Source: Acidimicrobiales bacterium (lineage in GTDB: Bacteria > Actinomycetota > Acidimicrobiia > Acidimicrobiales > Microtrichaceae). Taken from it: 35,855 nt of DNA. Positions 8,424 through 26,315 of this stretch are shown here, piece by piece. The notes under the pieces were generated by a model that worked only from the letters and a program-made list of their open reading frames with translations, was not told the origin of the DNA and ran no database searches. How positions within the stretch are numbered: the first letter of the stretch is position 1; each line of letters opens with the position of its first letter. The DNA lies in NCBI GenBank assembly GCA_038327485.1, contig JBBQLA010000001.1, forward strand, positions 1-35,855, given 5' to 3'. The position numbers were made by a program, and so were the translations under genes.

Positions 8424-8425
8424 CA

Positions 8426-9837: not shown

Positions 9838-9879
9838 GCAGTTGAGGGAGCCGGCGGGAGACCGACCTCCCTCAACTGC
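9838..9879 (+). promoter_or_regulatory. Perfect 13-bp stem hairpin in the surE leader, carrying a pseudo-SD and an anti-SD
   Basis: GCAGTTGAGGGAG (9838-9850) pairs perfectly with CTCCCTCAACTGC (9867-9879) across a 16-nt loop. The left arm copies the real surE SD context (GTTGCGAGGGAG, 9962-9973). Confidence 0.5.
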
Positions 9880-9977
9880 AAGGTCGTCCAGTCGGTCGAC
9901 GAGTTGAGCATCGACACGGGTCAACGAGCCACCGGCACTCGCTACGGTCGGGGGCCTGCGGGTTGCGAGGGAGAGCC

Positions 9978-10856
9978 ATGCGCATCCAGGTGACAAATGA
10001 TGACGGCATCTCCTCGGCGGGGTTGCATGCGCTCGTCCGCCGTCTCGCAGCGACGGACCACGAGGTGTTCGTCGTCGCGCCTGACCGCGATTGGAGCGGT
10101 GCCGGGGCGTGCATCGGCTCGATCCGACCCGACGAGTCACTCGACGCCGCGAAGGTCGAGATCGACGGAGCGACCGGCATCGACGCGTGGGCGCTGAACG
10201 GTCCACCAGCGCTCACAGTGATCGCCGCCCAGTTGGGCGCCTTCGGAGCGCCGCCAGATTTGGTCGTCTCAGGGATCAACGCCGGGCTGAACACTGGCCG
10301 TTCGGTGCTGCATTCCGGAACCGTGGGCGCTGCGCTCACTGCTCAGAACTTCGGGATCTCCGCGCTCGCGGTGAGCGTCGCCGAATCCGACCCGTGGTGT
10401 TGGGAGACCGCCGCCGACGCAGCGGCTTTCGTGCTCGGGCTCGTGATCGCGGCGCCGTCCCGCTCTGTCGTGAACCTCAACGTTCCAGCCGTGGCGCTGG
10501 GGGGTTCGCTCCGAGGATTCCGCTGGGGGCGCCTCGCTCCATTCGGTGCGGTCCGGGCAGCCCTGTCGGGCACCGAGGGCGACCAACTCCAGTTCGAACT
10601 GGTGCCCACCAACTACCAGCCCGATCGCGACACCGACCAGGGCATCGTTGATGAGGGCTACGCGGCGCTCACCACTCTGGTCGGCGTCACAGAAGCGTGG
10701 TCCTCGGACATTGACGACCAGAGCCAGCTCGTGCGAGCGCCACACCTCGAGGACCACATCGTTCCCGGAGCTCCCCTGCGGCGGCTCCATCGAGTTCCCG
10801 ACGCGTCGCTCAATCATTCGCTCCGGCGACCGCAGATCGGCGACCGGACAACCTGA
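9978..10856 (+). CDS. surE: 5'/3'-nucleotidase SurE
   Basis: Track ORF 9963..10856, started here at ATG 9978, which lies 4 nt after SD GAGGGAG. MRIQVTNDDGISSAGLHALVRRL matches the SurE N-terminal DDG signature, and SGINAGLNTG is the second signature. It has a C-terminal extension relative to typical 250-aa SurE. Confidence 0.9.
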   Translation: MRIQVTNDDGISSAGLHALVRRLAATDHEVFVVAPDRDWSGAGACIGSIRPDESLDAAKVEIDGATGIDAWALNGPPALTVIAAQLGAFGAPPDLVVSGINAGLNTGRSVLHSGTVGAALTAQNFGISALAVSVAESDPWCWETAADAAAFVLGLVIAAPSRSVVNLNVPAVALGGSLRGFRWGRLAPFGAVRAALSGTEGDQLQFELVPTNYQPDRDTDQGIVDEGYAALTTLVGVTEAWSSDIDDQSQLVRAPHLEDHIVPGAPLRRLHRVPDASLNHSLRRPQIGDRTT

Positions 10857-12274: not shown

Positions 12275-13246
12275 TCACTCGACCCGGCGGCTCAGGCTGA
12301 GCGCGAAGTCACCCGCCGGGTCGGTCCACCAGCCGATCATCTCGAATCCGGCCGCGGCCAGTTCGCGCTCGACGCCGTCCCGACGAAACTTCGCGCTGAT
12401 TTCGGTGAGGATTTCCTCACCCTCGTCGAGGTCGACGAGCATCGCTAATTCGGCGACGGTCACCGTCTGGCGAACGGTCGAGCGAAGCCACATTTCGATC
12501 CTCTCCTGCGCCTCGTTCCACCGCGCGACGTGATCGAAACGATCGAGGTCGAAGTCAGCACCGAGCTCACGGTTTACCACCGACAAGACGTTGCGATTGA
12601 AGCTGGCGGTCACCCCAGATTCGTCGTCGTAGGCGGCGACGAGACGTAATGGGTCCTTGACGAGGTCGGTTCCAAGAAGCAACGTCTCGCCTGGCTGGAG
12701 CATGCCGGCGATCGAGGCCAGCAGGCGACGACGCGGCTCAGGCGGGTAATTGCCGATCGTACCGCCGAGGAACGCCACCATTCTCCGGCCGCCGCCAGGC
12801 AGCATCGCGAGGTGTCGATCGAAGTCCCCGACCACGCAGTCGATTGCCAGCTCGGGGTAGCGCCGCTCCAGCACCTGCGCTGCGTCGCGCAACGCGGCCG
12901 CGCTCACGTCGAACGGGACATAGCGACCAACGTCGCCGCTGGCGGTGAGCGCGTCGAGCAGAACCCTGGTCTTGTCCGACGATCCTGAGCCGAGTTCGAC
13001 CAGCGTGTCGGCCCCACAGAGCCGAACCACCTCGCCGACGGCGAAACTCAGAGCGCTCCGTTCGGCCTCTGTGGGGTAGTACTCGACGAGCCGCGTGATC
13101 TTGTCGAACAGCGCACTCCCGGCCGCGTCGTAGAACCACTTGGGTGGGAGCATCTTCGGTCGCTGGCTGAAACCTTCCCGCACGTCGGCGCACAAGGCGT
13201 TACGGACGTCGTCGGGACCGAGGTGATCGATGATCGAGACAGTCAT
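12275..13246 (-). CDS. egtD: L-histidine N-alpha-methyltransferase (hercynine synthase) EgtD
   Basis: Track ORF 12275..13576, started here at ATG 13246 (MTVSIIDHL), which overlaps the egtB stop as ATGA. LPPKWFYDAAGSALFDKITRLVEYYPTEAE, the SAM motif LVELGSGSSDKT, and GGTIGNY match EgtD. Confidence 0.92.
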   Translation of the reverse strand: MTVSIIDHLGPDDVRNALCADVREGFSQRPKMLPPKWFYDAAGSALFDKITRLVEYYPTEAERSALSFAVGEVVRLCGADTLVELGSGSSDKTRVLLDALTASGDVGRYVPFDVSAAALRDAAQVLERRYPELAIDCVVGDFDRHLAMLPGGGRRMVAFLGGTIGNYPPEPRRRLLASIAGMLQPGETLLLGTDLVKDPLRLVAAYDDESGVTASFNRNVLSVVNRELGADFDLDRFDHVARWNEAQERIEMWLRSTVRQTVTVAELAMLVDLDEGEEILTEISAKFRRDGVERELAAAGFEMIGWWTDPAGDFALSLSRRVE

Positions 13247-14517
13247 GTGTTTCGCGCCAATCGAACTCCCCCGAACGCCCAGCGAGCACCGGGGGGGAAG
13301 AAGTTTCGGTAAGTGGGCCGCGTATGGCGTTCGGGAGTGACGCAAGCACCGCCGCGTAGCACCATCTGGTTTGACATGAACTTGCCGTTGTACTCCCCGA
13401 CCGCGCCGGCTGCCGGCTGAAAGCCCGGGTACCCGATGTAGGGACTTGCGGTCCATTGCCAGACAGCGCCGAACCATTGACCTGCGTCGCTCGGCGAACA
13501 ACGCGACGAGGGGTGCCACGAGATGCCGTGTTCGGCATCTGATCCCGGTCCCACGGATGTGACCGCGTGTTCCCACTCGAACTCGGTCGGCAGCCGCGCC
13601 CCTGCCCAGGCCGCGAACGCGTCAGCCTCGTAGTGACTGACGTGACACACCGGCTCTTCGTCGGGGATCGAGCCGGGACCGGCGAGCGTAAACCGCGACC
13701 ACGTTCCGGGGTCGGTCCCGTCACAGCGCCAGTACAACGGCGCCTCCCAACCGTGCTGTTGGACTGCCGCCCAGCCGTCGGACAGCCACAGTTCGGGCCG
13801 CTGATAGCCGTTGTCAGCGATGAATTCCTTCCAGTCGCCGCAAGTGACCAGCCGGTCGCCGATCGAATACGGCCCGAGCCACACCCGGTGGCGCGGGCCC
13901 TCGTTGTCGAACGCGAAGTCGTCGCCCTCGTGGCCAACTTCGATGAGCCCTCCCTCGATGTCGATCCAATCCAACGGGGGCGTCGGACTGGTCGACTTGG
14001 ACTGCGGCGAGGCCGGGGGACGGTAAGCGACCACCGTCGGGTTCTGGGCCAGGACGTGTTTGATGTCCATGAGCAGCAATTCCTGGTGCTGCTGCTCATG
14101 GTGCAGACCCAGCTCGACCAGCGTCGCTGCGTCGGGGGACGGGCCACTTGCGAGCAACGCCGCCATCGCGTCGTCGACGACCTGGCGGTACGCCATGATC
14201 TCGCCAACCGCTGGCCGCGTGATGAGCCCCCGTTCGGCCCTGGGGTGACGGGGCCCCACGGCTTCGTAGTAGGAGTTGAACAGGTACTCGAAAGCAGGGT
14301 CGTAGCGCCGGTACCCGGGCGAGTGGGCAGCGAGCACGAAAGTCTCAAAAAACCACGTCGTGTGCGCGCGATGCCACTTTGTCGGGCTGACGTCGGGCAT
14401 CGACTGCACGGTCTGGTCCTCGGCCCCGAGCGGTTCCGCGAGCCACTCGGTGACCGAGCGGACGCGTTCGTACTCGCGACCGAGATCGATAGCGGTTTTC
14501 GTGTCAGACCATTCCAT
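13243..14517 (-). CDS. egtB: Hercynine sulfoxide synthase EgtB (DinB_2 plus FGE-sulfatase domains)
   Basis: Track ORF 13243..14604, started here at ATG 14517 (SD GGAGGG 5 nt upstream). PTKWHRAHTTWFFETF and the iron ligands in LGLHHEQQHQELLLMDIKH match EgtB. The C-terminal FGE-like part has RGGACVTP and YRNFFPP. Confidence 0.92.
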   Translation of the reverse strand: MEWSDTKTAIDLGREYERVRSVTEWLAEPLGAEDQTVQSMPDVSPTKWHRAHTTWFFETFVLAAHSPGYRRYDPAFEYLFNSYYEAVGPRHPRAERGLITRPAVGEIMAYRQVVDDAMAALLASGPSPDAATLVELGLHHEQQHQELLLMDIKHVLAQNPTVVAYRPPASPQSKSTSPTPPLDWIDIEGGLIEVGHEGDDFAFDNEGPRHRVWLGPYSIGDRLVTCGDWKEFIADNGYQRPELWLSDGWAAVQQHGWEAPLYWRCDGTDPGTWSRFTLAGPGSIPDEEPVCHVSHYEADAFAAWAGARLPTEFEWEHAVTSVGPGSDAEHGISWHPSSRCSPSDAGQWFGAVWQWTASPYIGYPGFQPAAGAVGEYNGKFMSNQMVLRGGACVTPERHTRPTYRNFFPPGARWAFGGVRLARNT

Positions 14518-14697
14518 GATGAGTGCCCTCCGAGGCTCCACGATGCCTGGAGCACCGCCCTGGTATTTGCCGGTCCTGTTGCACACCATCTGAGGCGGAC
14601 CCATCTCCGAACAGCGCTCCGCTGCCTGAGCCGCTGCTGCGTTGGTAGGAGTGTCCGGTCCGGATCACGGCGTTGGGACGTCCGTTCAGCTGGACCA

Positions 14698-16596
14698 TCA
14701 GCGCATCATCGCCCGAACTCGCAGCAGCTCGGCGACCGACCATGCTTGGAACGGGCAGCCGGTCGCGGCGTGCGGGGGAGCGCCGTCGAAGGTTTCGGAC
14801 ACGGAACCGATCCCCCACTCGCTCAGGTGCGCGACGAGCCCGTCGAGCACCGACCCGTCGACGACGCCGGCGCGCCGTTGCGCGTCGAACCAGGGCCCGA
14901 TCAGCCAGGGCCACACGGTTCCTTGGTGGTAGGCGCCGTCGCGCTCGACCGGCCCGCCGCGATGGCAGCCCCGGTAGCGATGATCGGCGGGGGCGAGGGA
15001 GCTCAGCCCGAGCGAGGTGACGAGCGGACCGACCGCGCAAAGCACCGGCGCCGGGTCGCTGATGGGCGCGTACGGGAGCGATACCGCCAGCAGCTGATTG
15101 GGGCGAACCGAGGCGTCATCGCCCTCGTCACCGTCGACGACGTCGTAGAGCCCCAAGCCATCGGGCCGAACGAAACGCCGGATGAAGGAGCTCTGCGCGG
15201 TGTCGGCGAGCGTCCCGAAGCGTGTTCCCTTTCGCCCTGCGATGGCGGCCACGTGCCTGAGCCCGTTGATCCACAAAGCGTTCACCTCGACGGGCTTGCC
15301 GCGCCGCGCGGTGACGGGGGTACCGTCGATTCGGGCGTCCATCCACGTCAGCGCCCATCCGTCGGCACCTTGGATTATAAGACCGTCGGCGTCGACCCGG
15401 ATGCCGAAGCGCGTGCCTGCGAGGTGGTGGTCGACGACATCGCTCAGCACGGGGAGCAGCTCGGCGCCAAGATCGGTGTCGCCCGTTCGCTCGACGTGGC
15501 GCCCAACGGCATGGAGGAACCAGAGCGACCCGTCGACCGTGTTGTACTCCGTGCCCCCTGCGTCGGCGGTGTTGGCGAGCATCCCCTCGGAGGTTGTGGC
15601 CGCCGCGGCTCGGAGCAGCTCTGCGCCTTCCCCGGCACGGCCGGTGGTGAGGAACAGGCCCTCGTAGGAGGTCATCGTGTCTCGGGACCAATCGCCGAAC
15701 CAGGGGTAGCCGGCGACGACGGTCGGCCCTGCGGGCGCGGTCACGATCAGCTGGTCAGCGGCGTGCGCCAGGAGAGCGTCGACCTCGTTGCCGGCGCCGG
15801 AAGATCGAGCCACCCCTACCGCACGCTGTCGGGCTTTGTCGATGATCTGCCGCGCAGGGGCCGGCGGCTCGTCGAGCTGGCCGTGCCACGCCTCGACCTC
15901 GATCGTCGCGCCTGGCTCCAACGCTGCGACGAAGCGCCCGGCGAACCACAGATCCTCGCCATCGTTCAGCCCCCGAGCCGCCTCCTCACGGTGGTGGACG
16001 CCCCGGTACCACTCGCCGACGGGCTCGAAGCCCGGCCCGCGCACCCGGTACACACCCTCAAACATGAATCCGTCTGCTGCCTTGTCGATCGCCGGGTCGC
16101 CGTTCGCCCTGCGTTCGCCGTGGACGTCGCGCCAGGTGCACAAGGCCTCGACCTCGACCGTCACCCGATCTCGGGCGCCGGACCGCAGCAGCGTGAATCG
16201 CACGCCGGTCGCAGCGCGGCCACGCATCATTGCCAGCTCGGCCTCGAGTGCGACCCCGCCGACCGACCACCGCCACCGAGGCACCCCGTCAGTGACATCG
16301 AAGCGCTCGAGGTGCACGTATCCCGCGGGGCTGACTGCGCCGTCGGCCCACTCGTGCGTCGCGAGGCGGATCCGCTCGTCGCCGATGACCAGCACCGGGT
16401 CGAGCGCTGCCAAACCGAGGTGGCGGCCGATCGGCGGCTCAGTCGCCACAACGAGGAGTCCGTGGTAGCGCCGCGTCTGTAGGCCCGCGACCGTGCCCAT
16501 CGCGAAGCCGCCGAGCCCGTCGGTGACGAGCCACTCCCGCGACGCCGCGGCGCCGAGGTCGCCACAGATCTGCCGTCCGAACGTGATGCTTGCCAT
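14698..16596 (-). CDS. Glycogen debranching enzyme family protein (GDE N-terminal domain plus amylo-alpha-1,6-glucosidase domain)
   Basis: Track ORF. EWLVTDGLGGFAMGTVAGLQTRRYHGLLV is the characteristic N-terminal block. The C-terminal (alpha/alpha)6 part has GYPWFGDWSRDTM and AYHQGTVWPWLIGP. Confidence 0.9.
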   Translation of the reverse strand: MASITFGRQICGDLGAAASREWLVTDGLGGFAMGTVAGLQTRRYHGLLVVATEPPIGRHLGLAALDPVLVIGDERIRLATHEWADGAVSPAGYVHLERFDVTDGVPRWRWSVGGVALEAELAMMRGRAATGVRFTLLRSGARDRVTVEVEALCTWRDVHGERRANGDPAIDKAADGFMFEGVYRVRGPGFEPVGEWYRGVHHREEAARGLNDGEDLWFAGRFVAALEPGATIEVEAWHGQLDEPPAPARQIIDKARQRAVGVARSSGAGNEVDALLAHAADQLIVTAPAGPTVVAGYPWFGDWSRDTMTSYEGLFLTTGRAGEGAELLRAAAATTSEGMLANTADAGGTEYNTVDGSLWFLHAVGRHVERTGDTDLGAELLPVLSDVVDHHLAGTRFGIRVDADGLIIQGADGWALTWMDARIDGTPVTARRGKPVEVNALWINGLRHVAAIAGRKGTRFGTLADTAQSSFIRRFVRPDGLGLYDVVDGDEGDDASVRPNQLLAVSLPYAPISDPAPVLCAVGPLVTSLGLSSLAPADHRYRGCHRGGPVERDGAYHQGTVWPWLIGPWFDAQRRAGVVDGSVLDGLVAHLSEWGIGSVSETFDGAPPHAATGCPFQAWSVAELLRVRAMMR

Positions 16597-16599
16597 GGA

Positions 16600-16866
16600 T
16601 CAGTCCCTTTCGTGGTATCGGTGGTAGACGTCAATGAGCCCGTCTCGCACCGGTTCGGGGAGGGCCTGCGGGCGCAGGCGTCCGAGCACATTGATGGTGG
16701 TGCGCATCTGGGCGAGGTAGGCGGTGCAGGCGTCGCAGCCGGCAAGATGGCGAGCGAATCGGTCGGCGTCCGGTGCCGCCAGTGCGCCCTCGAGGTAGTC
16801 GGTCATCAGCTCGACCGCGTCGCGGCAGACGATTCGTCGCCGCCGCGTCCGCAGCCAAGGGATCAT
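16600..16866 (-). CDS. Zinc-binding (zf-HC2, RsrA-like) anti-sigma factor, cytoplasmic, with no adjacent sigma gene
   Basis: Track ORF. It has Cys14 plus the HLAGCDAC H-x3-C-x2-C motif and no TM segment. It aligns along its whole length with the anti-sigma at 25399..25641. ATGA overlap with the upstream DUF427 gene (16863-16866), and only 3 nt before the GDE start. Confidence 0.8.
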   Translation of the reverse strand: MIPWLRTRRRRIVCRDAVELMTDYLEGALAAPDADRFARHLAGCDACTAYLAQMRTTINVLGRLRPQALPEPVRDGLIDVYHRYHERD

Positions 16867-17615
16867 GCGAAGTGGGTCCTCGGTCTGGGCTGTTGCTCGC
16901 CGTCAACGGTGACGTCGACCTTTTCGTCGTAGAACGCCACGAGCCCTGCGATCTGTTGCGATTCACGGAACGGGGCCTTGTAGCTCCACGCCAGGTCGGC
17001 GAGTTCGCCAGTGGGGGTCGCGACCGCCCAATAGTGCGCCGTGCCCTTGTAGGGACAGTGCGACTCGGATGAAGTCGGCGTGAACAGGTCCATGCGCACG
17101 TCGAGCTTGTTGATGTAGGTCCGTCGCGGCAGGCCGGTCTCGTACAGGAACATCGGGTGGATCGTGTTCGCGACAAATACACCGTCCACGCTCACCGTCA
17201 CGTGGCGGGTGCTCGGGAGGATCTGCACGCGGGTCGACGGATTGCGGGGGTGGACGAAGATTTCCTCGTCTTCCTCGAACCACGCGTCCATGGCGTCGAA
17301 CTCGAACCGCACCCGGTCACGCAGCTCCTCGAACGCGCTGTCCTCGTGGACCCACGCGGCGTCCACCGCCTCCCGGTCGCCGATCGTGACGTTGTACAGC
17401 GTGGCTTCACCTCGGCTGGGTGATCGCTTTGTGCGCCCCGTCGGTACTAGAGCGCCCTCAATGACCGCTTCTCGAGGCACGAAGTACTGCGGGTAGAACG
17501 GCCACTCCCATACGTAGAGGGCGTCGGTGGTGTCGACGATCTGGCGGCCGCCGAATCGGATGCGGACCCGCTTGTGGCTGGGCTCGGTGCGAACGGTCCC
17601 GCGCGTTTCGCTCAC
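16863..17615 (-). CDS. Tandem DUF427-domain protein
   Basis: C-terminal 250 aa of track ORF 16863..17975, started at GTG 17615, which overlaps the upstream stop as GTGA. Two DUF427-like halves. The second has the typical SSESHCPYKGTAHYWAV..AWSYKAP..IAGLVAFY pattern. The upstream part of the track ORF is Arg/Pro-rich. Confidence 0.8.
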   Translation of the reverse strand: MSETRGTVRTEPSHKRVRIRFGGRQIVDTTDALYVWEWPFYPQYFVPREAVIEGALVPTGRTKRSPSRGEATLYNVTIGDREAVDAAWVHEDSAFEELRDRVRFEFDAMDAWFEEDEEIFVHPRNPSTRVQILPSTRHVTVSVDGVFVANTIHPMFLYETGLPRRTYINKLDVRMDLFTPTSSESHCPYKGTAHYWAVATPTGELADLAWSYKAPFRESQQIAGLVAFYDEKVDVTVDGEQQPRPRTHFA

Positions 17616-18157
17616 GAGTTGGCTGCCAGCCACGCGTCGCGGATCTCCGGTGCCAGCGGGTCGAAGTCCGGCCGGATCCGCTTCGACAGATCGCGGAGGT
17701 CGGCCCACAGGTCGTAGATCGACGGCCTGCCCCAGAACCAATAGCCGCAGTAGACCTTGTCGACGACGAGGCCGGGGGCCAGCACCAACGTGTGGGGGAC
17801 GCTTGCGGGGTGGTGGGGGTCGGTGTACTCCCGGATGTCGAGGTCCTCCTGTACGGCGAGGCTCTCGTCGGCGAGAAACGTCCAGCCAGCACCGGTTGAG
17901 ATCTTGAGCTTGTACGTCTCGTGCGCGTCGTTCGGGAGCAGCGACACCAGCGAGCAGAAGCCCACCGCGCACCACTGGTGGAATTTCAGGAGCTCGAGGT
18001 GCATCTGGCGCTCTCGCGGGCAGTGCTCGCCGCGACTCAGGTGGAGCACCATGGTGTTGTCGGGCCCTTGGAGGTCGGAGAGCTTGTGAGGCACCCCGTT
18101 CTCGTCGGGCACCTCGTAGTCGGGGAACGTTGCACCGGGGACGATGTCGGGGCGCAT
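17612..18157 (-). CDS. Redoxin / AhpC-TSA-like thioredoxin-fold protein (single active-site Cys)
   Basis: Track ORF 17612..18349, started here at ATG 18157. The pattern GATFPDYEVPDENGVPHKLSDLQG..VLHLSRGEHCPRER follows the peroxiredoxin-like layout, but with C-P-R-E in place of the CxxC. Confidence 0.7.
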   Translation of the reverse strand: MRPDIVPGATFPDYEVPDENGVPHKLSDLQGPDNTMVLHLSRGEHCPRERQMHLELLKFHQWCAVGFCSLVSLLPNDAHETYKLKISTGAGWTFLADESLAVQEDLDIREYTDPHHPASVPHTLVLAPGLVVDKVYCGYWFWGRPSIYDLWADLRDLSKRIRPDFDPLAPEIRDAWLAANS

Positions 18158-18162
18158 AGTGA

Positions 18163-19731
18163 TCAAGCCTTCTTTCCGGGGAGTTGGCCGCCGGCGGGGA
18201 GCCGCAGGCGGTAGACGCTGGTCATGGCGGTGATGAAAAGAGTGTTTCCGTTTTCGCCCCAAGCGAGGTTGTGGGGTGATTCGGGCACAACGAGGCGCCC
18301 GAGCACCGCGCCGTCGGGGTCCACGACCCAGACGCCGCCGGGGCCGCACACGTAGAGATTTCCTGCGCCGTCGACCTTGATGCCGTCGATCGCGTCATCG
18401 CCGTCCTCGGCGGTCAGATCGCACAGCAGCACGCCGTCGCCGACCGAGCCGTCGACGGCCACGTCGTAGCGCATGACGGCCTTGTGGCCGGGGTCCCAGT
18501 CGCCGACATAGAGGTAGCGCTCGTCAGGCGAGAACGCGAGCCCGTTGGGTCCGGCCAGCTCGCTCGTTACCAGGCTGATGACTCCGTCGCGGGCGCGGAA
18601 CACGCCGGAGAAGGCGAGCTCTCTGTTGGGGTCGTCGTACACGCCGGGCAGGCCGAAGGGCGGATCGGTGAAGTAGAGAGTGCTGTCACTGCGGAACACG
18701 AGGTCATTGGGGCTGTTGAGTCGCTTGCCGTCGAACTTGTCCGCGAGGACGGTGACGTCGCCATGCGGGTTGACGCGAATCACGCGCCGGTTGCCGTGTT
18801 GGCAGATCGCGAGGTTGCCGTCGGGGTCGAGGGTCAAGCCGTTCGAGCCGGGCTGGTGGTAGCGGCCGATGTCGACGCCGGTGTACCCGCTCTTCGACCG
18901 GAACACCGTGACCAGCCCGTCGGGAGACCAGCGATAGATGGTGTTGACGTCGGGCGAGCTGAACAGCAGCGCGCCGTCGACCCACACGGGGCCCTCGGTG
19001 AAGACGAAGCCTGCGGCGATCCGCTCCAGCCGCACATCAGGCGGGATCACGTCATCGAGCCGGGCATCGCGCCGCTCGATCGCTAGCTCTGCGAGCTCGC
19101 CCACCTGCGCGCGCTCTGCGGCGTAGACGTCGAGCGACGCCGTCCGAACCCAGATGTAGTTGCGTGGATCGGCCGACAGCGGCCCATTGATGCCGAACAC
19201 TGCGATCGTGAAGGCATCGCCGGGCCGTGCGTCGCGCGTGAGGACCACCCGGTTCGGCGCATTGAACCCCGCGGCGACAGGCCCACCGACATCGCCGAGC
19301 GCATGGGGGAGCTCGCCGTCCACCCACACCTCGGCGTAGTCGTCGACGACGACTTCGAACACGATCGTCGCGCCGCTCGGGTCGAACTCGCCGATGCGCT
19401 CGGGAATCGTGACCTTCGTGCGGTACCAGTCGAAGCAGACACGTCCCGTGCTGAGGCGGTGCTCGAGTTCGTGGGGCGCGAGCTCATCCCAGTCGCTGTC
19501 GTCGTAGCCGATGGCACCGGCTGCGGGCGAGATGATTTGCGTGCGGTTGGGCTCACCGCTCGGTGCCAGGTCCAAGCCGACGCCGACGAAGTCGACGTCG
19601 ACGACGGTGGCGTCGCGGTGCCGCCACCGCGCGCCGACCAGGGCGGCGCCCTCCGCGGTGCGGAGGTCGACGATGGCGTCGGGGCACCCCGGCAGGAGCT
19701 CGGGCGGCCCGGGGATGCGGTGGGCGCTCAC
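18163..19731 (-). CDS. SMP-30/gluconolactonase/LRE-like beta-propeller protein with an N-terminal galactose-binding-like jelly-roll domain
   Basis: Track ORF with a GTG start overlapping the upstream stop as GTGA at 19728-19731. The N-terminal 220 aa (CFDWYRTKVTIPE..IVFEVVVDDYAEVWVDGELP) resembles GH2-type sugar-binding domains. The C-terminal part has FTEGPVW, SNGLTLDPDG, NSPNDLV, PNGLAFSPD and the IDGIKVDGAGNLY propeller motifs. Confidence 0.85.
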   Translation of the reverse strand: MSAHRIPGPPELLPGCPDAIVDLRTAEGAALVGARWRHRDATVVDVDFVGVGLDLAPSGEPNRTQIISPAAGAIGYDDSDWDELAPHELEHRLSTGRVCFDWYRTKVTIPERIGEFDPSGATIVFEVVVDDYAEVWVDGELPHALGDVGGPVAAGFNAPNRVVLTRDARPGDAFTIAVFGINGPLSADPRNYIWVRTASLDVYAAERAQVGELAELAIERRDARLDDVIPPDVRLERIAAGFVFTEGPVWVDGALLFSSPDVNTIYRWSPDGLVTVFRSKSGYTGVDIGRYHQPGSNGLTLDPDGNLAICQHGNRRVIRVNPHGDVTVLADKFDGKRLNSPNDLVFRSDSTLYFTDPPFGLPGVYDDPNRELAFSGVFRARDGVISLVTSELAGPNGLAFSPDERYLYVGDWDPGHKAVMRYDVAVDGSVGDGVLLCDLTAEDGDDAIDGIKVDGAGNLYVCGPGGVWVVDPDGAVLGRLVVPESPHNLAWGENGNTLFITAMTSVYRLRLPAGGQLPGKKA

Positions 19732-20564
19732 GGCTGGGCTTCGACGGCCGTGGCGAAAGCGGCGGCGGCGAGCAAGGCGAGCTCTTGGTCTTCGGGAGCC
19801 GACGAAGCGCCGCTCACACCGACCGCACCGATGACCTCACCATCGACGGTCAGGGGGATCCCGCCTTGGAGCGGCACGGCACCGGCGAGGTGTAGCGCCG
19901 AGGGACGGCCACCGGCCGCCTGATCCTCGAAGTCCTTACTCGGGCGGCGGTAGATCGCGGCAGTGCGAGCCTTGTCGGTGGCCACTCCGACGCTCGCCAC
20001 CTGCGCTGCGTCGGGACGGTTCAGGTACATCAGCTCGCCGCCGGCATCGACGATCGCGACGACAGGTACGACCCCGCGGTGCTCGGCCTCCGCAGCAGCG
20101 GCCTCGGCGGCGAGCCGGGCGCCGTCGAATGTGAGGGCAGGACCTTCGGTGAACGGCAGATCTGCGGCGGCACCAGCGAGCGAGACACCCTCGTCCTCGT
20201 CGGGCGTCTCACCGCTCGTGCCGATCGCGCCGACAACTTCGCCGTCCACGATCAGCGGGATACCGCCGGTCAGCGCAACGGCACCGTGCAGCGCAAGGGC
20301 GCCGAGGCGACCCTCGGACACCTGAGCTTCGATCTCGCGGCTCGGCCGCATAAAGATCGCCGCCGTCCGCGCCTTGTCGATCGCAACCTGCGACGAGGCG
20401 ACCTGGGCGCCTTCAGTGCGCCCGAGCCGGAGCAGATTGCCGCCTGTATCCACGACGGCAATGACGACGCGCAGCCCATGCTCGGTGGCGTGTCTTTCGG
20501 CCGCGGTCATCGCGCCTTCGACTGCGGCGAGGTCGAGGGTCCGGCGGGTTCGGATGAGGGTCAT
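19728..20564 (-). CDS. Fused double GlcG/HbpS-like (DUF336, haem-degrading-like) protein
   Basis: Track ORF. Two homologous halves share motifs: VVDTGGNLLRL..VAIDKARTAAIF..GGIPLIVDGEVVGAIGTSG and IVDAGGELMYL..VATDKARTAAIY..GGIPLTVDGEVIGAVGVSG. Confidence 0.85.
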   Translation of the reverse strand: MTLIRTRRTLDLAAVEGAMTAAERHATEHGLRVVIAVVDTGGNLLRLGRTEGAQVASSQVAIDKARTAAIFMRPSREIEAQVSEGRLGALALHGAVALTGGIPLIVDGEVVGAIGTSGETPDEDEGVSLAGAAADLPFTEGPALTFDGARLAAEAAAAEAEHRGVVPVVAIVDAGGELMYLNRPDAAQVASVGVATDKARTAAIYRRPSKDFEDQAAGGRPSALHLAGAVPLQGGIPLTVDGEVIGAVGVSGASSAPEDQELALLAAAAFATAVEAQP

Positions 20565-20566
20565 GG

Positions 20567-21394
20567 TCAGCCTCCACTGAGCAGGGCGACGACCCAGACG
20601 GCGTCGTCGGCGGTGATGAAGAGCCGGTTGTGATCGGGCTCGGAGAAACAGAAGTTGACGGCGCCTGGCAGATGGATCTCCGCGAGCAGGTCACCGTCAG
20701 GGTCGTAGACCTGCACGCCGCTGCCGGCCGAGGCATACACGAAGCCGTTCCGGTCGACCTTCAGGCCATCGGGGTGGCCAGGGTAGATGACGGTGAAGAG
20801 CCGGCGGCCCCGCAGGTGGGTGCCGGTCACGTCGAACGCCTCGATGTGGTGCGGCGCACCACTGTCAGTGACGTAGAGCACGCTGCCGTCAGGCGAGATC
20901 GCTATACCGTTGGGCTTGTCGAAGCCGTCGGCGGCGATGGAGTGCACACCGCTGCGAGGGTCGTAGCGGTGCACGAAGTCGCCGAGTGCCGGCTCGGGGC
21001 GGAAGCCCTGCAAATGCCCGTAGCTGGGGTCGGTGAACCAGATAACGCCGTCTGGACCGACGACGACATCGTTCGGTGAGCTGAGCGGCATGTCACGATA
21101 CGAGTCGATAACCGTCTCTACCGCACAGGTGGCGAGGTCGAGACGGGCGATGCGAGCCGGCTGCTCGAAGCTGCCCTGGTCGCAGACCAGCAGCGTGTTG
21201 TTGCCGCCGTCGAACATCCCATTCGGGCAAGCGATGGCGACAGCGAGATCGGTCGCCGCTGCGGTGGTGACCTCGATGCGGCGGATCGCGCCCGGCACCG
21301 TGACATAGAGCGCGTTCTGCTCTGCGACATGCACCGGACCCTCATGCGCGGCCGTGCGCGCCAACAGGCGAGGGATGAGCGAGTCAAGAGGCAT
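20567..21394 (-). CDS. SMP-30/gluconolactonase/LRE-family lactonase
   Basis: Track ORF 20567..21583, started here at ATG 21394 (SD GGAG upstream). Motifs HEGPV, SSPNDVVVGPDGVIWFTDP, PNGIAISPDG and PDGLKVDRNGFVY are present. The next gene starts 2 nt after its stop, behind an internal GGAGG. Confidence 0.85.
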   Translation of the reverse strand: MPLDSLIPRLLARTAAHEGPVHVAEQNALYVTVPGAIRRIEVTTAAATDLAVAIACPNGMFDGGNNTLLVCDQGSFEQPARIARLDLATCAVETVIDSYRDMPLSSPNDVVVGPDGVIWFTDPSYGHLQGFRPEPALGDFVHRYDPRSGVHSIAADGFDKPNGIAISPDGSVLYVTDSGAPHHIEAFDVTGTHLRGRRLFTVIYPGHPDGLKVDRNGFVYASAGSGVQVYDPDGDLLAEIHLPGAVNFCFSEPDHNRLFITADDAVWVVALLSGG

Positions 21395-21424
21395 ACTCCG
21401 CCATCGTCCGACATCGGCGCCCAG

Positions 21425-21450
21425 CGTTACAGCGAACTTCGGGTGTAACG
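21425..21450. promoter_or_regulatory. Inverted repeat in the divergent lactonase-operon / SDR-operon promoter region
   Basis: CGTTACA (21425-21431), a 12-nt spacer, then TGTAACG (21444-21450): a perfect 7-bp inverted repeat centred in the roughly 100-bp divergent intergenic region. Confidence 0.3.
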
Positions 21451-21499
21451 GATCGCCGCTTACGCCGACTACGCCTGAACAACGATCATGGAGGTCGCA

Positions 21500-22327
21500 G
21501 TGAACGGACTGCAGGGCAAGACGGCGATCGTCACCGGTGGGAGCTCTGGCATCGGCCAGGCGATTGCCATCCGGCTCGGCCACGAGGGCGTCAACGTCGC
21601 CGTCAACTACGTCGGCCCGATGGAGGGCGCGGAGCGCACCAAAGACGAGATCGACGCCGTCGTGAACGCGTGTATCGACGAGGTGAACTCCTGCCCAGCA
21701 CCCAGCCGGGCGATGCTCGTCGAGGCCGACGTGTCCGACGAGGGGGCCGTCGATCAGATGTACGAGCAGGTGCGCTCAGAGTTCGGCCCGATCGACTTCC
21801 TCGTCAACAACGCCGGGATCCAGATCGCCCAGGACTCCGACTTGCTCGACGCTGCAGCGTTCGACCGGGTGCTCGCCGTGAACCTCAGGGGTTCGTTCCT
21901 GTGCGCCCGCGCCCTGATTCATCAGCTGCTCGAGGACGAGCGGCCGGGAGCGATCGTCAACATCTCGTCGGTGCACCAGGTGATCCCGAAGCCGAAGTTC
22001 CTCGGCTACTCGGTCAGCAAGGGAGGCATGCAGAACCTGACCCGCACGCTCGCGCTCGAGTTCGCCGGACGCGGGATTCGCGTCAACGCCATGGGCCCCG
22101 GCGCCACCGTGACGCCGATCAACCGGGCCTGGGTCGACGACCCCGAGAAGGCGGCGCTCGTCACCGCGCACATCCCCATGGGCCGGCCCGGCCTCGCCGA
22201 GGAGATGGCCGCCACGACGGCGTTCCTCCTCTCCGAGGATGCGGGCTACATCACCGGCCAGACGCTGTTCGTCGATGGCGGGCTCACGTTGTACGCCGAC
22301 TTCCGTGGCACTTGGAGCTCGGAGTGA
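21500..22327 (+). CDS. Short-chain dehydrogenase/reductase, glucose 1-dehydrogenase-like
   Basis: Track ORF 21488..22327. GTG 21500 lies 5 nt after GGAGG and gives MNGLQGKTAIVTGGSSGIG. NNAG and the catalytic S..YxxSK (ISSVHQ..YSVSKGG) are present. PGATVTPIN and ITGQTLFVDGG resemble Bacillus-type glucose 1-dehydrogenase. Confidence 0.88.
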   Translation: MNGLQGKTAIVTGGSSGIGQAIAIRLGHEGVNVAVNYVGPMEGAERTKDEIDAVVNACIDEVNSCPAPSRAMLVEADVSDEGAVDQMYEQVRSEFGPIDFLVNNAGIQIAQDSDLLDAAAFDRVLAVNLRGSFLCARALIHQLLEDERPGAIVNISSVHQVIPKPKFLGYSVSKGGMQNLTRTLALEFAGRGIRVNAMGPGATVTPINRAWVDDPEKAALVTAHIPMGRPGLAEEMAATTAFLLSEDAGYITGQTLFVDGGLTLYADFRGTWSSE

Positions 22328-23121
22328 GCGCGGCCGTCGCCGCCGCCGCCCGACACGTACGCGACGGGCGTGTGTTCGACCTGGCGCACGTGCTCGACGA
22401 ACACGTCCCAGCGTTCCCGGGCCGCACCTTTCGTCAACTGCTGACGACGAACGCGGCTCGCTCGATCGGCAAGAACAAGGTCAACTGGATCGTGGAGTAC
22501 GTGCACGCGCCATCGCAGATGGGCACCCATATGGATGGACTCAACCACCTGCTGCGTGACGGGCGCATGCACGGCGGCCACCACGTCGACGACGTCGTTG
22601 TCGAGTGGGGAACGACCGAGAACGGCATCGAGACCGCGCCGCAGATCGTGACCCGCGGCGTGCTGCTCGACATTGCTCGCTCGCGAGGCGTCGCTCACCT
22701 CGACCCCGGCGACGTGATCACTCCCGACGACGCGGCCGCGGCACTCGCCGGGCTCACCGTGGAGCCCGGCGATGCCGTGCTGTTCCACACCGGGTGGGGT
22801 CGCTACTGGTACGACGACGGCGAGCGCTACACCTCGGGCGAGCCAGGTCCGGGCATGGCTGTCGCGAAGTGGCTCGCCGAAAGCGGTGTCGTCATCACCG
22901 GATGTGATACGTGGAGCTACGGCCCAGTCCCGGCCGAAGAACCCGACGAACCCTTCGTCGTCCCCCAGACCCTGAACATCGACCACGGCGTGCTGGTGAT
23001 GGAGAACCTCCGTCTGAGCGAGCTGGCCGAGGCCCGTGCGACGGAGTTCCTCCTTGTCGTCTCGCACCCCAAGCTCCGCGGCGCGACGGGCGCCTGGGTC
23101 GCCCCCCTCGCGATCACCTGA
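22324..23121 (+). CDS. Cyclase-family protein (kynurenine formamidase-like metal hydrolase)
   Basis: C-terminal 265 aa of track ORF 21670..23121, starting at GTG 22324, which overlaps the SDR stop as GTGA. It has the GTHMDGLNH metal-binding block typical of the putative cyclase family, and DAVLFHTGWG. The upstream part of the track ORF is an out-of-frame overlap with the SDR gene. Confidence 0.8.
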   Translation: MSAAVAAAARHVRDGRVFDLAHVLDEHVPAFPGRTFRQLLTTNAARSIGKNKVNWIVEYVHAPSQMGTHMDGLNHLLRDGRMHGGHHVDDVVVEWGTTENGIETAPQIVTRGVLLDIARSRGVAHLDPGDVITPDDAAAALAGLTVEPGDAVLFHTGWGRYWYDDGERYTSGEPGPGMAVAKWLAESGVVITGCDTWSYGPVPAEEPDEPFVVPQTLNIDHGVLVMENLRLSELAEARATEFLLVVSHPKLRGATGAWVAPLAIT

Positions 23122-23176
23122 CCCACCCGAACCCTTTCCCTTGCGGCCCTATTGGCCGCCCCTCGTGAGGAGTCCC

Positions 23177-24709
23177 ATGGCTGACCACTACGACGTGATC
23201 GTGATCGGTAGCGGCGCGGGCGGCGGCACGCTGACCTACGCGCTCGCCGAGACAGGCAAGAAGATTCTCCTCCTCGAGCGCGGCGGTTGGTACCCGCGTG
23301 AGCGCGACAACTGGGACTCCAAGGTGGTGTGGGGCGACCTCAAGTACCGCAACGCCGGACTCTGGACCGACCAGGACGGGCGCAAGTTCAACCCGAAGCA
23401 GCACTACTACGTCGGGGGCAACACCAAGGTCTACGGTGCGGTCCTGTTCCGAATGCGCGAGCGAGACTTCGGGGTGGTGCGCCACGTCGAGGGCGATTCA
23501 CCTGCGTGGCCCCTCGGCTACGGCGACTTCGAGCCGTGGTACACGAGAGCCGAGCAGCTTTACTCGGTGCACGGTGACCGGGGCGCCGACCCGCTCGAGC
23601 CAACCGCGTCGGCCCCCTACCCGTGGCCTGCGGTGAGCCATGAGCCTCGAATCGAGCAGCTCGCCGACGACTTGAAGGGCGCCGGGCTGCACCCGTTCTC
23701 GCTCCCGCTCGGGATCCTGCTCGACGAGGCGCACCCCGAGACCAGCGCTTGCATCCGGTGCTCGACGTGCGACGGATTCGCCTGCGTCGTGAAGGCCAAG
23801 GCCGACGCGCACGTCGTGTGCGTCGAGCCGGCCCTGCGCCACCCGAACGTGTCGATGCTCACCGGAGCGCGTGTGACCCGCCTCGTCACCGGAGACGGCG
23901 GGCGGCGCGTCGACAAAGTGATCGCCGACGTCGACGGAGAACGCCTGGAGCTCACTGCCGACGTTGTCGTCGTCGCCGCCGGCGCCATCAACTCGGCGGC
24001 GCTGTTGCTGTCGTCGGCGGACGAGCACCACCCGCTGGGCCTCGGGAACTCCTCCGGCGTGGTCGGGCGCAACCTGATGATGCACAACAACAGCTCGCTC
24101 ATCGCCATCTCGAAGGACCGGCATGCAACGGTGTTCGAGAAGACGCTCGGCCTCAACGACTTCTACTACGGCGATGGCGAGTGGGAGTTCCCTCTCGGAG
24201 CAATGCAGATGCTCGGCAAGAGCGACGCCTTCACGATGTCGCTCGACGCTCCCGACGCCGAGGACCCCGCCGACCTCGCCGCTCGATCCCTCGACTTCTG
24301 GCTCACCACTGAAGACCTGCCGCGTATGGAAAACCGGGTCGAGGTCGCGGCGGATGGTGGCCTGAAGCTCTCATATACGCCGACAAACCTCGAGGCCCAT
24401 ACGCGGCTCATCGAGAAATTCAAATCGCTCCTCGACACAATAGGCTGCGAACAACGGTTACGCACCAAGCACACGTACCTCGGCGGCAGGCTCGGGATCT
24501 CCGCTGTGGCTCACCAGAACGGCACGATCCGCTTTGGCACTGACCCGTCCACGTCAGCGCTGAACACGGACTGCCGACTCCACGACGTCGACAACGTGTA
24601 CGTCACCGACGGCAGCTTCTTCGCGTCAAGCTCGGCGGTGAACCCGACCCTCACGATCATCGCCAACTCGCTCCGCGTTGCCGATCACCTCGGCCAGCGC
24701 ATGGCCTGA
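23177..24709 (+). CDS. GMC-family FAD-dependent oxidoreductase
   Basis: Track ORF 23036..24709, started here at ATG 23177 (SD GAGGAG 4 nt upstream). YDVIVIGSGAGGGTLTYALAETGKKILLLERG is the FAD ADP-binding fold. The C-terminal HQNGTIRFG and NVYVTDGSFFASSSAVNPTLTIIAN match the GMC C-terminal domain. Confidence 0.88.
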   Translation: MADHYDVIVIGSGAGGGTLTYALAETGKKILLLERGGWYPRERDNWDSKVVWGDLKYRNAGLWTDQDGRKFNPKQHYYVGGNTKVYGAVLFRMRERDFGVVRHVEGDSPAWPLGYGDFEPWYTRAEQLYSVHGDRGADPLEPTASAPYPWPAVSHEPRIEQLADDLKGAGLHPFSLPLGILLDEAHPETSACIRCSTCDGFACVVKAKADAHVVCVEPALRHPNVSMLTGARVTRLVTGDGGRRVDKVIADVDGERLELTADVVVVAAGAINSAALLLSSADEHHPLGLGNSSGVVGRNLMMHNNSSLIAISKDRHATVFEKTLGLNDFYYGDGEWEFPLGAMQMLGKSDAFTMSLDAPDAEDPADLAARSLDFWLTTEDLPRMENRVEVAADGGLKLSYTPTNLEAHTRLIEKFKSLLDTIGCEQRLRTKHTYLGGRLGISAVAHQNGTIRFGTDPSTSALNTDCRLHDVDNVYVTDGSFFASSSAVNPTLTIIANSLRVADHLGQRMA

Positions 24710-24736: not shown

Positions 24737-25402
24737 GTGGAGAGCGACGGCGTCGGCACGGTGGATCTCGGCGAAGACGCCGCTCTCGTTGTCGCGCTCC
24801 GAATGGGCGACGAGAAGGCGTTCGCCGAGCTGCTCGACTGCCACTACGACACGATGCTGCGCGTCGCCCGGATGTATGTCGCCACCGTGGAGGCCGCCGA
24901 GGACGTGGTGCAGGAGACGTTCCTTGGTGTGATCCGGGGAATCGACCGCTTCGAGGAGCGGTCGTCGATCAAGACGTGGATGTTCCGCATCCTTGTCAAC
25001 CGGGCGAAGACGAGGGGCGAGCGGGAGGGGCGGACTCGGCCGTTCTCGTCGCTGCAGCCGGAGCTGGAGGCGGGCAGACCGTCGGTCGACCCAGGCCGTT
25101 TCATCGCTGACGGCCGTTGGGCCGGCTTTTGGGGAACACCTCCTTCCACCGAGCACCTTCCTGAGGCCCGGTTGCTGGCCGCGGAAGTGGGAGGCCGGAT
25201 CGTCGCGGCGATCGACGAGCTTCCGCCCTCGCAGCGAGCGGTGATTACCCTGCGCGACGTGCATGGCCTGTCGGCCACTGATGTTTGCGACCTTTTGGAC
25301 CTGAGCGAGGCGAACCAACGGGTGCTGCTGCACCGGGCCCGCTCGAAGGCGCGGGCGACCTTGGAGCGCTACCTTGACGAGGGCGTGGAGGCTGGTTCGT
25401 GA
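24737..25402 (+). CDS. ECF (group 4) RNA polymerase sigma factor
   Basis: Track ORF. Region 2 is AEDVVQETFLGVIRGIDRFEERSSIKTWMFRILVNRAKT. Region 4 is LPPSQRAVITLRDVHGLSATDVCDLLDLSEANQRVLLHRARSKAR. Confidence 0.9.
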   Translation: MESDGVGTVDLGEDAALVVALRMGDEKAFAELLDCHYDTMLRVARMYVATVEAAEDVVQETFLGVIRGIDRFEERSSIKTWMFRILVNRAKTRGEREGRTRPFSSLQPELEAGRPSVDPGRFIADGRWAGFWGTPPSTEHLPEARLLAAEVGGRIVAAIDELPPSQRAVITLRDVHGLSATDVCDLLDLSEANQRVLLHRARSKARATLERYLDEGVEAGS

Positions 25403-25641
25403 TGGTCCAGCCCGAGTTCCGATGCGTCGAGTTCGTCGAGATGGCAACTGACTGGATGGAGCTCGCGCTCGACGACCACGACCGCGTCTCGCTTGAGGAG
25501 CACGTCGCTATCTGCCCCCACTGCAGCGAGTACGTCGAGCAGCTGCGCCTCACTATCGGCGTACTGCGCGAGGTGCGGCACGAGGCACCGCCTCCGGCGG
25601 CCCGGGCTGCGCTGCTCGAAGCCTTCCGCCAGTCGCGCTGA
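25399..25641 (+). CDS. Zinc-binding (zf-HC2, RsrA-like) anti-sigma factor, cognate partner of the ECF sigma
   Basis: Track ORF with a GTGA overlap with the sigma stop at 25399-25402. It has Cys9 plus the HVAICPHC H-x3-C-x2-C motif, is 80 aa and has no TM segment. Confidence 0.85.
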   Translation: MMVQPEFRCVEFVEMATDWMELALDDHDRVSLEEHVAICPHCSEYVEQLRLTIGVLREVRHEAPPPAARAALLEAFRQSR

Positions 25642-25668
25642 GCTGACCTTCTCGGCTCAGGTCAGCTC
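25640..25668. terminator. Bidirectional hairpin spanning both convergent stop codons
   Basis: GAGCTGACC (25640-25648) pairs perfectly with GGTCAGCTC (25660-25668) across an 11-nt loop. Confidence 0.45.
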
Positions 25669-26280
25669 AAGGCGCACAGTGAGCCAACGCGATTGGAAGG
25701 CCCGCTCGGCCGCGTAGCCCTCGTCGTATGCATCGCGGTCGCCGGCGGGACCGGCGACGACGTGACCCGCGGAGCAGCAGGCGACGAACGGCGACTCGGC
25801 CGGGTTGCCGTACAGGGCGTCGTGCGCGGCATCCACCGCGAGGGCCGCCGCGGTCAGGGCAAACGACGCGTCGCTGACGTCACTGTCGAGGGCGACCAGT
25901 GCGTCGAGCGTCGTTGCGGCCGATAGCCGGTCGCCGAGGGCGCGGTCGCCGTCGTTGTGCAGCGCGGCGACGGCGCGGTCGCGGCTGCGCCATGCACCGA
26001 CCTCAGCGAGATCACGCACGACGGTGCCGTAAGCGTCGATGCGGCGCACGAGTCGCCCTCGCGACGCCGCGACTTTGTGGTGGGACCGGACGATCTCACC
26101 CCCGAGCTCGACCTCCCACAACGATGCTGCGAGCCAGTACGCGACGTCGGGGGGCTCGCAAGCGTGCACACCCGTTTCGCAGATCGCGACCGACCCTGAT
26201 TCCACCCACTCACCAACCGTCCACGGCACTGCTGTGAAGGGCGATCGGCCGTGGGGGTCGAGGAACTTGTATGCCCGCAC
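25657..26280 (-). CDS. Conserved hypothetical protein (207 aa)
   Basis: Track ORF with good GC3. From memory, the N-terminus MRAYKFLDPHGRSPFTAVPWTVGEWVE..GVHAC..LWEVELGGEI recalls an uncharacterised actinobacterial family. No function assignable. Confidence 0.65.
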   Translation of the reverse strand: MRAYKFLDPHGRSPFTAVPWTVGEWVESGSVAICETGVHACEPPDVAYWLAASLWEVELGGEIVRSHHKVAASRGRLVRRIDAYGTVVRDLAEVGAWRSRDRAVAALHNDGDRALGDRLSAATTLDALVALDSDVSDASFALTAAALAVDAAHDALYGNPAESPFVACCSAGHVVAGPAGDRDAYDEGYAAERAFQSRWLTVRLELT

Positions 26281-26315
26281 GTGTAACAGGTTGGCACGAG
26301 CGGAGACTGCGGCGC

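Follow-up and report, generated by a model that had tools for sequence, protein, structure and literature searches.

A candidate second zinc anti-sigma factor in the predicted regulon of a neighbouring ECF sigma factor in an Acidimicrobiales bacterium

Sigma factors of the extracytoplasmic function (ECF) group and their anti-sigma factors are usually treated as closed one-to-one modules. In a stretch of 35,855 nucleotides of an Acidimicrobiales bacterium (GCA_038327485.1, contig JBBQLA010000001.1; the whole stretch is called the window below), an ECF sigma factor of 221 aa (sigma A; 24737..25402, plus strand; Pfam Sigma70_r2 and r4_2) is accompanied by two small zinc anti-sigma (ZAS) proteins. 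The gene of the first, ZAS2 (80 aa; 25399..25641, plus strand; Pfam zf-HC2), shares a GTGA overlap with the stop of the sigma gene, which indicates translational coupling. The second, ZAS1, is a soluble domain of 88 aa (16600..16866, minus strand) and is the sixth gene of a tightly packed seven-gene operon (14698-21394, minus strand). On the sequence evidence, ZAS1 is likely to be a genuine, sigma-regulated anti-sigma factor, and the nearby ECF sigma very probably switches it on. With moderate confidence, ZAS1 is read here as a second, regulon-encoded redox-sensing brake on sigma A. This reading is favoured because the synteny of ZAS1 and sigma is conserved, because both operons carry the same ECF promoter motif, and because in one genome ZAS2 has decayed and ZAS1 has been kept.

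The two ZAS proteins have the same ligand arrangement. The zinc ligands are C14 and H40-x3-C44-x2-C47 in ZAS1 and Cys9 and H35-x3-C39-x2-C42 in ZAS2, with a Cys-to-His spacing of 26 residues in both, and the two proteins align ungapped over 68 residues with 37% identity. C14, H40, C44 and C47 are invariant across 18 aligned homologues, and ZAS1 shares conserved residues of helix 1 and helix 3, besides all four ligands, with sigma-coupled relatives. The Pfam family zf-HC2 (PF13490) is matched with 43.9 bits against a cut-off of 22.2. The AlphaFold2 (AF2) model of ZAS1, computed from the 18-sequence alignment, consists of four helices with a predicted local distance difference test (pLDDT) score of 84.5, and the top six matches of a Foldseek search of the PDB are RslA, RsiW and RskA chains from sigma complexes, with probabilities of up to 0.97 but weak E-values (0.15 and above) for a very small domain. 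A sequence-profile search likewise retrieves RslA and RsiW. Judged by its ligands, profile score and modelled helical fold, ZAS1 is a genuine class I zinc anti-sigma domain. It departs from the family in one respect, since members are encoded beside, and usually co-transcribed with, a cognate sigma gene and the operon of ZAS1 contains none. Membership of either protein in the RsrA group was considered and rejected, because the scores against the RsrA/RshA equivalog model TIGR03988 (24.4 bits for ZAS1 and 23.8 bits for ZAS2) fall below the cut-off of 62.5 and the promoter type differs. The redox sensitivity of ZAS proteins cannot be predicted from the motif alone (PMC3177212, PMC7406223), and redox sensing by ZAS1 is a prediction.

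The link between ZAS1 and sigma A begins with the promoters. Five plus-strand genes form one unit, in the order short-chain dehydrogenase (SDR), cyclase-family protein, GMC-family oxidoreductase, sigma A and ZAS2, and this unit diverges from the seven-gene operon with 94 bp between the first genes. Inside this divergent region stand two predicted ECF promoters back to back, at 21431(-) and 21444(+). The one of the seven-gene operon, TGTAACGCTGGGCGCCGATGTCGGAC (21406..21431, minus strand), has a -10 element ending 11 nt before the ATG at 21394, a distance that suggests a leaderless or near-leaderless mRNA. The other, TGTAACGGATCGCCGCTTACGCCGAC (21444..21469, plus strand), is the predicted autoregulatory promoter of the sigma operon. 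A third predicted promoter, TGTAACAGGTTGGCACGAGCGGAGAC (26282..26307, plus strand), lies 8 nt before the in-frame ATG at 26316 of a GH63-like gene. All three have the pattern TGTAAC-N17-GAC, which is, at the level of sequence, of the form of an ECF promoter, and TGTAAC -35 elements have been documented for ECF16 sigma factors (PMC8315932, PMC3420878). The motif before the seven-gene operon is thus identical to that before the operon of the sigma itself, as would be found for a member of its regulon. A preliminary description of this DNA, made from its letters alone, had called ZAS1 "sigma-less", which is misleading, as 94 bp separate the first genes of the sigma and ZAS1 operons and ZAS1 abuts the sigma gene in other genomes; the back-to-back promoters of the two operons had been missed. 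Its proposal that an ECF motif be sought upstream of both 21394 and the egtB gene is answered by an exact TGTAAC-N17-GAC at the former and by nothing convincing in the gap before the latter.

The motif is rare and is tied to gene starts. The window contains three TGTAAC hexamers in all (21431, 21444 and 26282), each with GAC at N17; three exact sites are observed against 0.08 expected, and none of 500 dinucleotide shuffles reaches three. In six loci that carry a sigma A orthologue or a ZAS1-clade gene, 12 of the 13 TGTAAC hexamers have GAC at N17. GTAAC-N17-GAC, a relaxed form of the motif, occurs 20 times in the window and six related loci taken together; where gene calls could be checked, these sites lie upstream of genes and mostly 8-11 nt before the start codon, the pattern that leaderless mRNAs would show. 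A near-identical variant, GTAACAG..GGCAC....GAGAC, precedes GH63 in the window and in locus L171 (L171:11591) and the disulfide-oxidoreductase gene in L001 (L001:618). The exact motif stands directly upstream of the ZAS1 orthologues of L001/L002, L006, L007 and L171, and the one-base variant TGAAAC-N17-GAC upstream of those of L168 and L173, so that at every locus with available DNA the ZAS1 orthologue is preceded by the motif or by a one-base variant. A motif of the TGTAACGGATCGCCGCTTACGCCGAC type is likewise kept upstream of the SDR gene in L001, L002, L009, L171 and L172.

The second line of evidence is synteny. The pairing of a ZAS1-clade gene with a neighbouring orthologous sigma gene recurs outside the window, in related genomes of uncultured Acidimicrobiia: six distinct loci show it, in five layouts, and the sigma identities that were measured are 66-77%. 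The nearest homologue of ZAS1 (70% identity), in L001/L002, is a standalone gene divergent from an SDR-cyclase-GMC-sigma operon whose sigma is 73% identical to sigma A, and a back-to-back motif pair separates the two as in the window. ZAS1 is directly divergent from, and abuts, sigma-ZAS2 in L007 and in one JGI contig; in another JGI contig it is co-directional and stands ahead of SDR, cyclase, GMC, sigma and ZAS2, where the downstream DUF7666, GH63, disulfide oxidoreductase and Na+/H+ exchanger genes also match the window. In L173, a contig of 1.4 Mb, ZAS1 heads a different divergent operon that adjoins sigma-ZAS2. The architecture of the window itself is reproduced in L171, a contig of 196.8 kb with a sigma 77% identical to sigma A: its minus-strand unit contains a glycogen-debranching-enzyme-like (GDE) gene, ZAS1, DUF427, a redoxin, a 522-aa SMP-30/gluconolactonase-like (SGL) protein and an SGL-GlcG fusion, and divergent from it stand SDR, cyclase, GMC, sigma and ZAS2, followed by GH63, disulfide oxidoreductase, exchanger, egtD and egtB. 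There, ZAS1 follows DUF427 after a 60-nt gap that contains a TGTAAC-N17-GAC of its own. Sigma, ZAS2 and ZAS1 occur together in the window, L171/L172, L007, L173 and two JGI contigs, and ZAS2 orthologues lie 3' of the sigma gene in L007, L008, L009, L171, L172 and L173. The conservation of the ZAS-DUF427-GDE adjacency, which had been proposed as a check, holds for a narrow sub-lineage (L171) and fails in the other ZAS1 loci and in two loci with DUF427 orthologues (L169 and L170, the two checked), where no ZAS, redoxin or GDE gene and no promoter motif was found nearby. The seven-gene operon is therefore not an ancient unit; as far as the compared sequences go, its embedded form is lineage-restricted and the link of ZAS1 to the sigma is general.

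The third line comes from L001, where the ZAS2 orthologue (L001:782-902, minus strand) is a pseudogene. About 31 codons have been deleted, including those of HxxxCxxC, and the frame is shifted; the N-terminal 26 and the C-terminal 20 residues are still recognisable. ZAS1 is intact and is the sole intact ZAS gene of that locus. That both anti-sigmas act on one sigma is a prediction, and this pseudogene is the single, indirect hint of it.

Several observations weigh against ZAS1 as a brake on sigma A. No ZAS1 gene was found within 10 kb of the sigma gene in L008 and L009, so ZAS1 would be dispensable for the sigma. Several of the ZAS1 loci were found through ZAS1 itself, and a nearby ZAS1 is present at two of the four that came from searches with the sigma. 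The search of GTDB representative genomes with the sigma yielded two close orthologues, L008 and L009; the other 78 loci were distant ECF sigma factors and were left out. The ZAS2 pseudogene of L001 is known from one metagenome assembly. ZAS1 is closer (49-58% identity) to anti-sigma factors co-transcribed with a second, sister type of sigma, itself only 41-54% identical to sigma A, than to ZAS2 (37%). This implies that ZAS1 originally partnered a different sigma, of which a copy could be present elsewhere in the genome. At least one sister-sigma locus (L003) and the upstream regions of some others, finally, carry the same or a very similar motif, and the promoter thus does not tell which sigma drives ZAS1.

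The origin of ZAS1 bears on the last two points. Among 80 metagenome loci with ZAS1-like genes in this identity range, almost all have the ZAS gene directly after a sister-type sigma gene, the product of which is only 43-54% identical to sigma A over most of its length. A neighbour-joining tree recovers the ZAS1 clade as monophyletic, nested in this radiation of sigma-co-transcribed ZAS proteins and with a long branch between it and the ZAS2 clade, a placement that makes ZAS1 an orphaned offshoot of the partner of the sister sigma and not a recent duplicate of ZAS2. A residue-level "convergence" of ZAS1 on ZAS2 was also considered and was dropped because the sister-lineage anti-sigmas are too heterogeneous at the positions concerned. 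Tandem duplicates of sister-type sigma-ZAS pairs occur in L096 (L096:9423-11107) and L098 (L098:185-1505), with the second sigma copy truncated or missing, and by their sequences these look like the way in which orphan ZAS genes arise. At 63 metagenome loci of sister sigmas, a minority have TGTAAC...GAC-like upstream sites and most have nothing obvious, and the two sigma types are neither cleanly separated nor united by them. In L003, a TGTAACG-N16-GAC site precedes a divergent lactonase-like gene. This site suggests that the sister-type sigma and sigma A share promoter specificity and regulon themes. In L003 (6168-9474) and L004 (6187-9472), the sister sigma-ZAS pair is followed by a glutaredoxin-thioredoxin-reductase-like fusion, with the divergent lactonase-like gene ahead, and these thiol and lactonase themes parallel the regulon of the window.

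Given this ancestry, ZAS1 might be induced by sigma A and sequester a sister-type ECF sigma encoded elsewhere, so that one system damps another. The nesting of ZAS1 among the sister-sigma anti-sigmas, far from the ZAS2 clade, speaks for such cross-wiring, as do the L096 and L098 duplicates, which offer a route to an orphan copy. Against it, the orthologous sigma apart, no second sigma gene lies in the window, where sigma A is the only one, or in the 10-20 kb around the ZAS1 loci; ZAS1 is the only intact ZAS gene beside the sigma in L001; and its tight linkage to sigma A in five layouts argues for a direct functional pairing. Cross-wiring is considered rather unlikely, though it is the main rival. 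Slightly less credence still is given to a wider proposal, in which ZAS1, descended from an anti-sigma cognate to a sister ECF sigma, was captured by the sigma A regulon and now either wires two ECF systems together or places two chemically distinct redox sensors on one sigma. In its two-system version, sigma A would induce ZAS1 and a sister sigma encoded elsewhere would be silenced; in its two-sensor version, ZAS1 and ZAS2 would release sigma A at different oxidant thresholds. If true, this would be a hierarchical or two-threshold thiol-stress circuit of a kind not yet described for ZAS proteins.

Two further explanations do without a role of ZAS1 on any sigma. ZAS1 could be a redundant or decaying duplicate that is carried along by its operon and has no regulatory role of its own, as its absence near the sigma in L008 and L009 and the frequency of ZAS duplicates in the family might suggest; this is unlikely, since all orthologues are intact open reading frames (ORFs) with the four ligands invariant at 50-70% identity, a dedicated sigma-type promoter has been kept across rearrangements, and where one copy did decay it was ZAS2 rather than ZAS1. 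It is a little less probable again that ZAS1 is the redox-sensitive partner of an enzyme of the operon (DUF427, GDE or redoxin) or of ZAS2. ZAS1 does lie between DUF427 and GDE in the window and in L171, it shares an ATGA overlap with DUF427 in the window, and glycoside-hydrolase-type genes adjoin it in L006. But five of the seven ZAS1 layouts lack the adjacency to DUF427 and GDE, as do the two DUF427 orthologue loci, ZAS1 of L171 has its own promoter and the 60-nt gap, the constant neighbour of ZAS1 is the sigma and no enzyme is constant, and ZAS1 is conserved in the same helices as its sigma-bound relatives. Of the two interpretations offered in the preliminary description, the second redox-sensing brake is thus the one favoured, by synteny, the motif and the decay of ZAS2 in L001, and the non-sigma target is left unsupported, with the ligands and the helix-1 and helix-3 residues kept.

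As a second brake on sigma A, ZAS1 would close a feedback loop. In the resting state, the sigma would be held by ZAS2, which translational coupling supplies at 1:1. An electrophilic or thiol-oxidising signal in the cytoplasm would attack the Cys/His zinc site and release the sigma, and the free sigma would fire the three TGTAAC-N17-GAC promoters of the window, namely those of its own operon, of the seven-gene operon (possibly on into egtB and egtD) and of the GH63-disulfide-reductase-antiporter unit. As ZAS1 would be made only from a sigma-dependent transcript, the anti-sigma capacity would climb above that of the sigma as the response proceeds, and the excess of ZAS1 would shut the response off and maintain homeostasis, perhaps with a second redox threshold.

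Parts of this design are known from other bacteria. The RsrA/SigR pair of Streptomyces and the RshA/SigH pair of Corynebacterium and Mycobacterium are thiol-stress switches (PMC3489674; PMC4960319), and the window resembles them in its small soluble zinc anti-sigma proteins with Cys-x25-H-x3-C-x2-C, in its ECF sigma with predicted autoregulation and in the thiol-redox content of the predicted regulon (here redoxin, disulfide oxidoreductase and ergothioneine genes). It differs from them in its promoter, TGTAAC-N17-GAC versus the SigR/SigH-type GGAAT-N16-19-GTT, and M. tuberculosis SigH matches sigma A weakly (E=3e-7). In C. glutamicum, rshA has an extra SigH-dependent promoter that gives a monocistronic transcript, for which an anti-sigma excess and fast shut-down have been proposed (PMC3489674). 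The same logic of extra sigma-dependent expression as shut-off is proposed for ZAS1, whereas the feedback copy here is a separate paralogue from another ZAS lineage and not a second promoter on the same gene. RslA/SigL of M. tuberculosis (PDB 3HUG) and RsiW/SigW of B. subtilis (PDB 5WUQ) share the class I domain, HxxxCxxC and the helical fold with ZAS1; they are membrane proteins co-transcribed with the sigma, in contrast to the soluble 88-aa ZAS1 with no sigma gene in its operon.

One sigma with two candidate anti-sigma factors has also been described. ECF107 has been noted with two putative anti-sigmas (PMC7826278), SCO3450 of S. coelicolor lies between SCO3449 and SCO3451, two putative zinc-finger anti-sigmas within its regulon (bioRxiv 10.1101/247056), and RpoE2 of S. 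meliloti has RsiA1 and the orphan RsiA2 (PMC6180224, PMC8103513). Like the window, these combine a single ECF sigma with an adjacent and a separate candidate anti-sigma, both inside or beside the regulon. In the case of SCO3450, moreover, both anti-sigmas are small proteins with zinc fingers, and AACGG, which has been reported as the -35 element, resembles TGTAACG; SCO3450 and ECF107 are likened to sigma A by their descriptions, and RsiA1 and RsiA2 are NepR-type, unlike the zinc proteins ZAS1 and ZAS2. In the descriptions of these three systems, the second anti-sigma is neither embedded in a metabolic operon nor shown to derive from the partner of a sister sigma. The statement that the arrangement could not be mapped to a described system was wrong, as two anti-sigmas on one ECF sigma and sigma-dependent anti-sigma promoters had both been described. 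What is new is the combination of a second ZAS protein from another lineage, always behind the promoter motif of the sigma, and embedded in a metabolic operon in this sub-lineage. Anti-sigma surveys take in only genes that adjoin a sigma gene (PMC7406223).

The seven minus-strand ORFs and their six junctions in the window sequence agree with the preliminary description, as does the homology of ZAS1 and ZAS2. Gene 1 (20567..21394) encodes an SGL protein of 275 aa (Pfam SGL, E=1e-35) whose orthologue in L171 is 61% identical and is fused there with the GlcG gene. TGAccATG at 20564/20567 joins it to gene 2 (19728..20564), a tandem HbpS/GlcG-like protein of 278 aa (Pfam HbpS-like in two stretches, E=4e-57; 82% identical in L171), which has a GTGA overlap at 19728-19731 with gene 3 (18163..19731). 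The 522-aa product of gene 3 has a C-terminal SGL lactonase domain (Pfam SGL, residues 244-503), and its N-terminal part of about 240 residues has no Pfam match, yet the protein is 78% identical over its full length in L171. After a 5-nt gap at 18157/18163 follows gene 4 (17612..18157), an AhpC/TSA-like redoxin of 181 aa with a borderline Pfam AhpC-TSA score (26.5 bits against a cut-off of 26) that is 81% identical in L171. A GTGA overlap at 17612-17615 leads to gene 5 (16863..17615), a double DUF427 protein of 250 aa (Pfam NTP_transf_9 in two stretches, E=1e-47) with more than 3800 homologues. The start of ZAS1 overlaps its stop by ATGA (16863-16866). Between ZAS1 and gene 7 the gap is 3 nt (16596/16600); gene 7 (14698..16596) encodes an archaeal-type GDE-like protein of 632 aa (Pfam GDE_N and GDE_C; 74% identical in L171). 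No terminator-like sites are predicted inside the operon, which is predicted to be co-transcribed.

Downstream of the GDE gene by 93-180 nt and on the same strand (12275..14604) lie egtB (about 13243-14517; Pfam FGE-sulfatase and DinB_2) and egtD (about 12275-13240; Methyltransf_33). A search of the GDE-egtB gap for a sigma-type promoter or a terminator gave nothing convincing, and the two genes may be a 3' extension of the seven-gene transcription unit. In L171 and L172, egtD-egtB instead close the GH63 unit, after the Na+/H+ exchanger (L171:16938-19102); the genes are thus found at the 3' end of a predicted sigma-driven unit in both the window and L171, but of a different unit in each. Ergothioneine synthesis may be part of the response of sigma A.

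On the plus strand, the sigma operon opens with the SDR gene (21488..22327; Pfam adh_short_C2, E=2e-57; 82-83% identical in L001 and L171), the true start of which is probably the GTG at 21500. It is followed by the cyclase-family (PF04199) gene (22330..23121, start approximate; 77-78% identical in L001 and L171) and by the flavin adenine dinucleotide (FAD) oxidoreductase of the GMC family (23165..24709, start approximate, ORF opening at 23036; 80-81% identical in L001 and L171). The homologues of sigma A number more than 7000, and those with names that lie closest to it come from metagenome-assembled genomes (MAGs) of Acidimicrobiia, as do the closest named homologues of the DUF427 protein. 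In L009, an Acidimicrobiia MAG, SDR residues 2-39 abut sigma residues 85-217 (L009:9890-10396), an apparent deletion by which most of the SDR, the cyclase, the GMC gene and sigma region 2 are gone and the promoter motif and ZAS2 are kept. Between ZAS2 and GH63 lies a minus-strand DUF7666 gene (25657-26280) that is kept in L171, L172 and one JGI contig. The GH63/MGH1-like glycoside hydrolase (26316..28892, plus strand; Pfam), a predicted regulon member, probably starts at the ATG at 26316 rather than at 26271. On its 3' side follow a pyridine-nucleotide disulfide oxidoreductase and then the Na+/H+ exchanger, an order kept in L171, L172 and the co-directional JGI contig. A DM13-domain gene is preceded by TGTAAC-N17-GAC in L171 (20513-20575) and in L173 (12258), and in L171 its promoter is paired back to back with that of a glycosyltransferase gene; by this motif, the regulon may extend beyond the window to both genes. 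Neither the Rfam scan nor the tRNA scan gave a match in the window. A phosphate-related cluster at 408-10856 (a PBP-like protein, PhoU, a PhoD phosphatase, a phosphoesterase-family protein and SurE) has no connection with the anti-sigma finding.

What the comparison brings to light is an anti-sigma factor of one lineage that has repeatedly been kept, through at least five rearrangements, as a predicted sigma-dependent gene next to a sigma already equipped with a coupled anti-sigma. Should ZAS1 bind sigma A, the arrangement would be a natural negative-feedback or two-sensor design built from paralogues, and a case of anti-sigma re-targeting within one group, with consequences for specificity rules and synthetic ECF circuits; its practical use is modest as long as this binding is a prediction. 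For the widespread sigma factor of uncultured soil Acidimicrobiia, the analysis offers a predicted regulon of lactonases, a GMC oxidoreductase, a redoxin, a disulfide reductase, glycoside hydrolases and ergothioneine synthesis.

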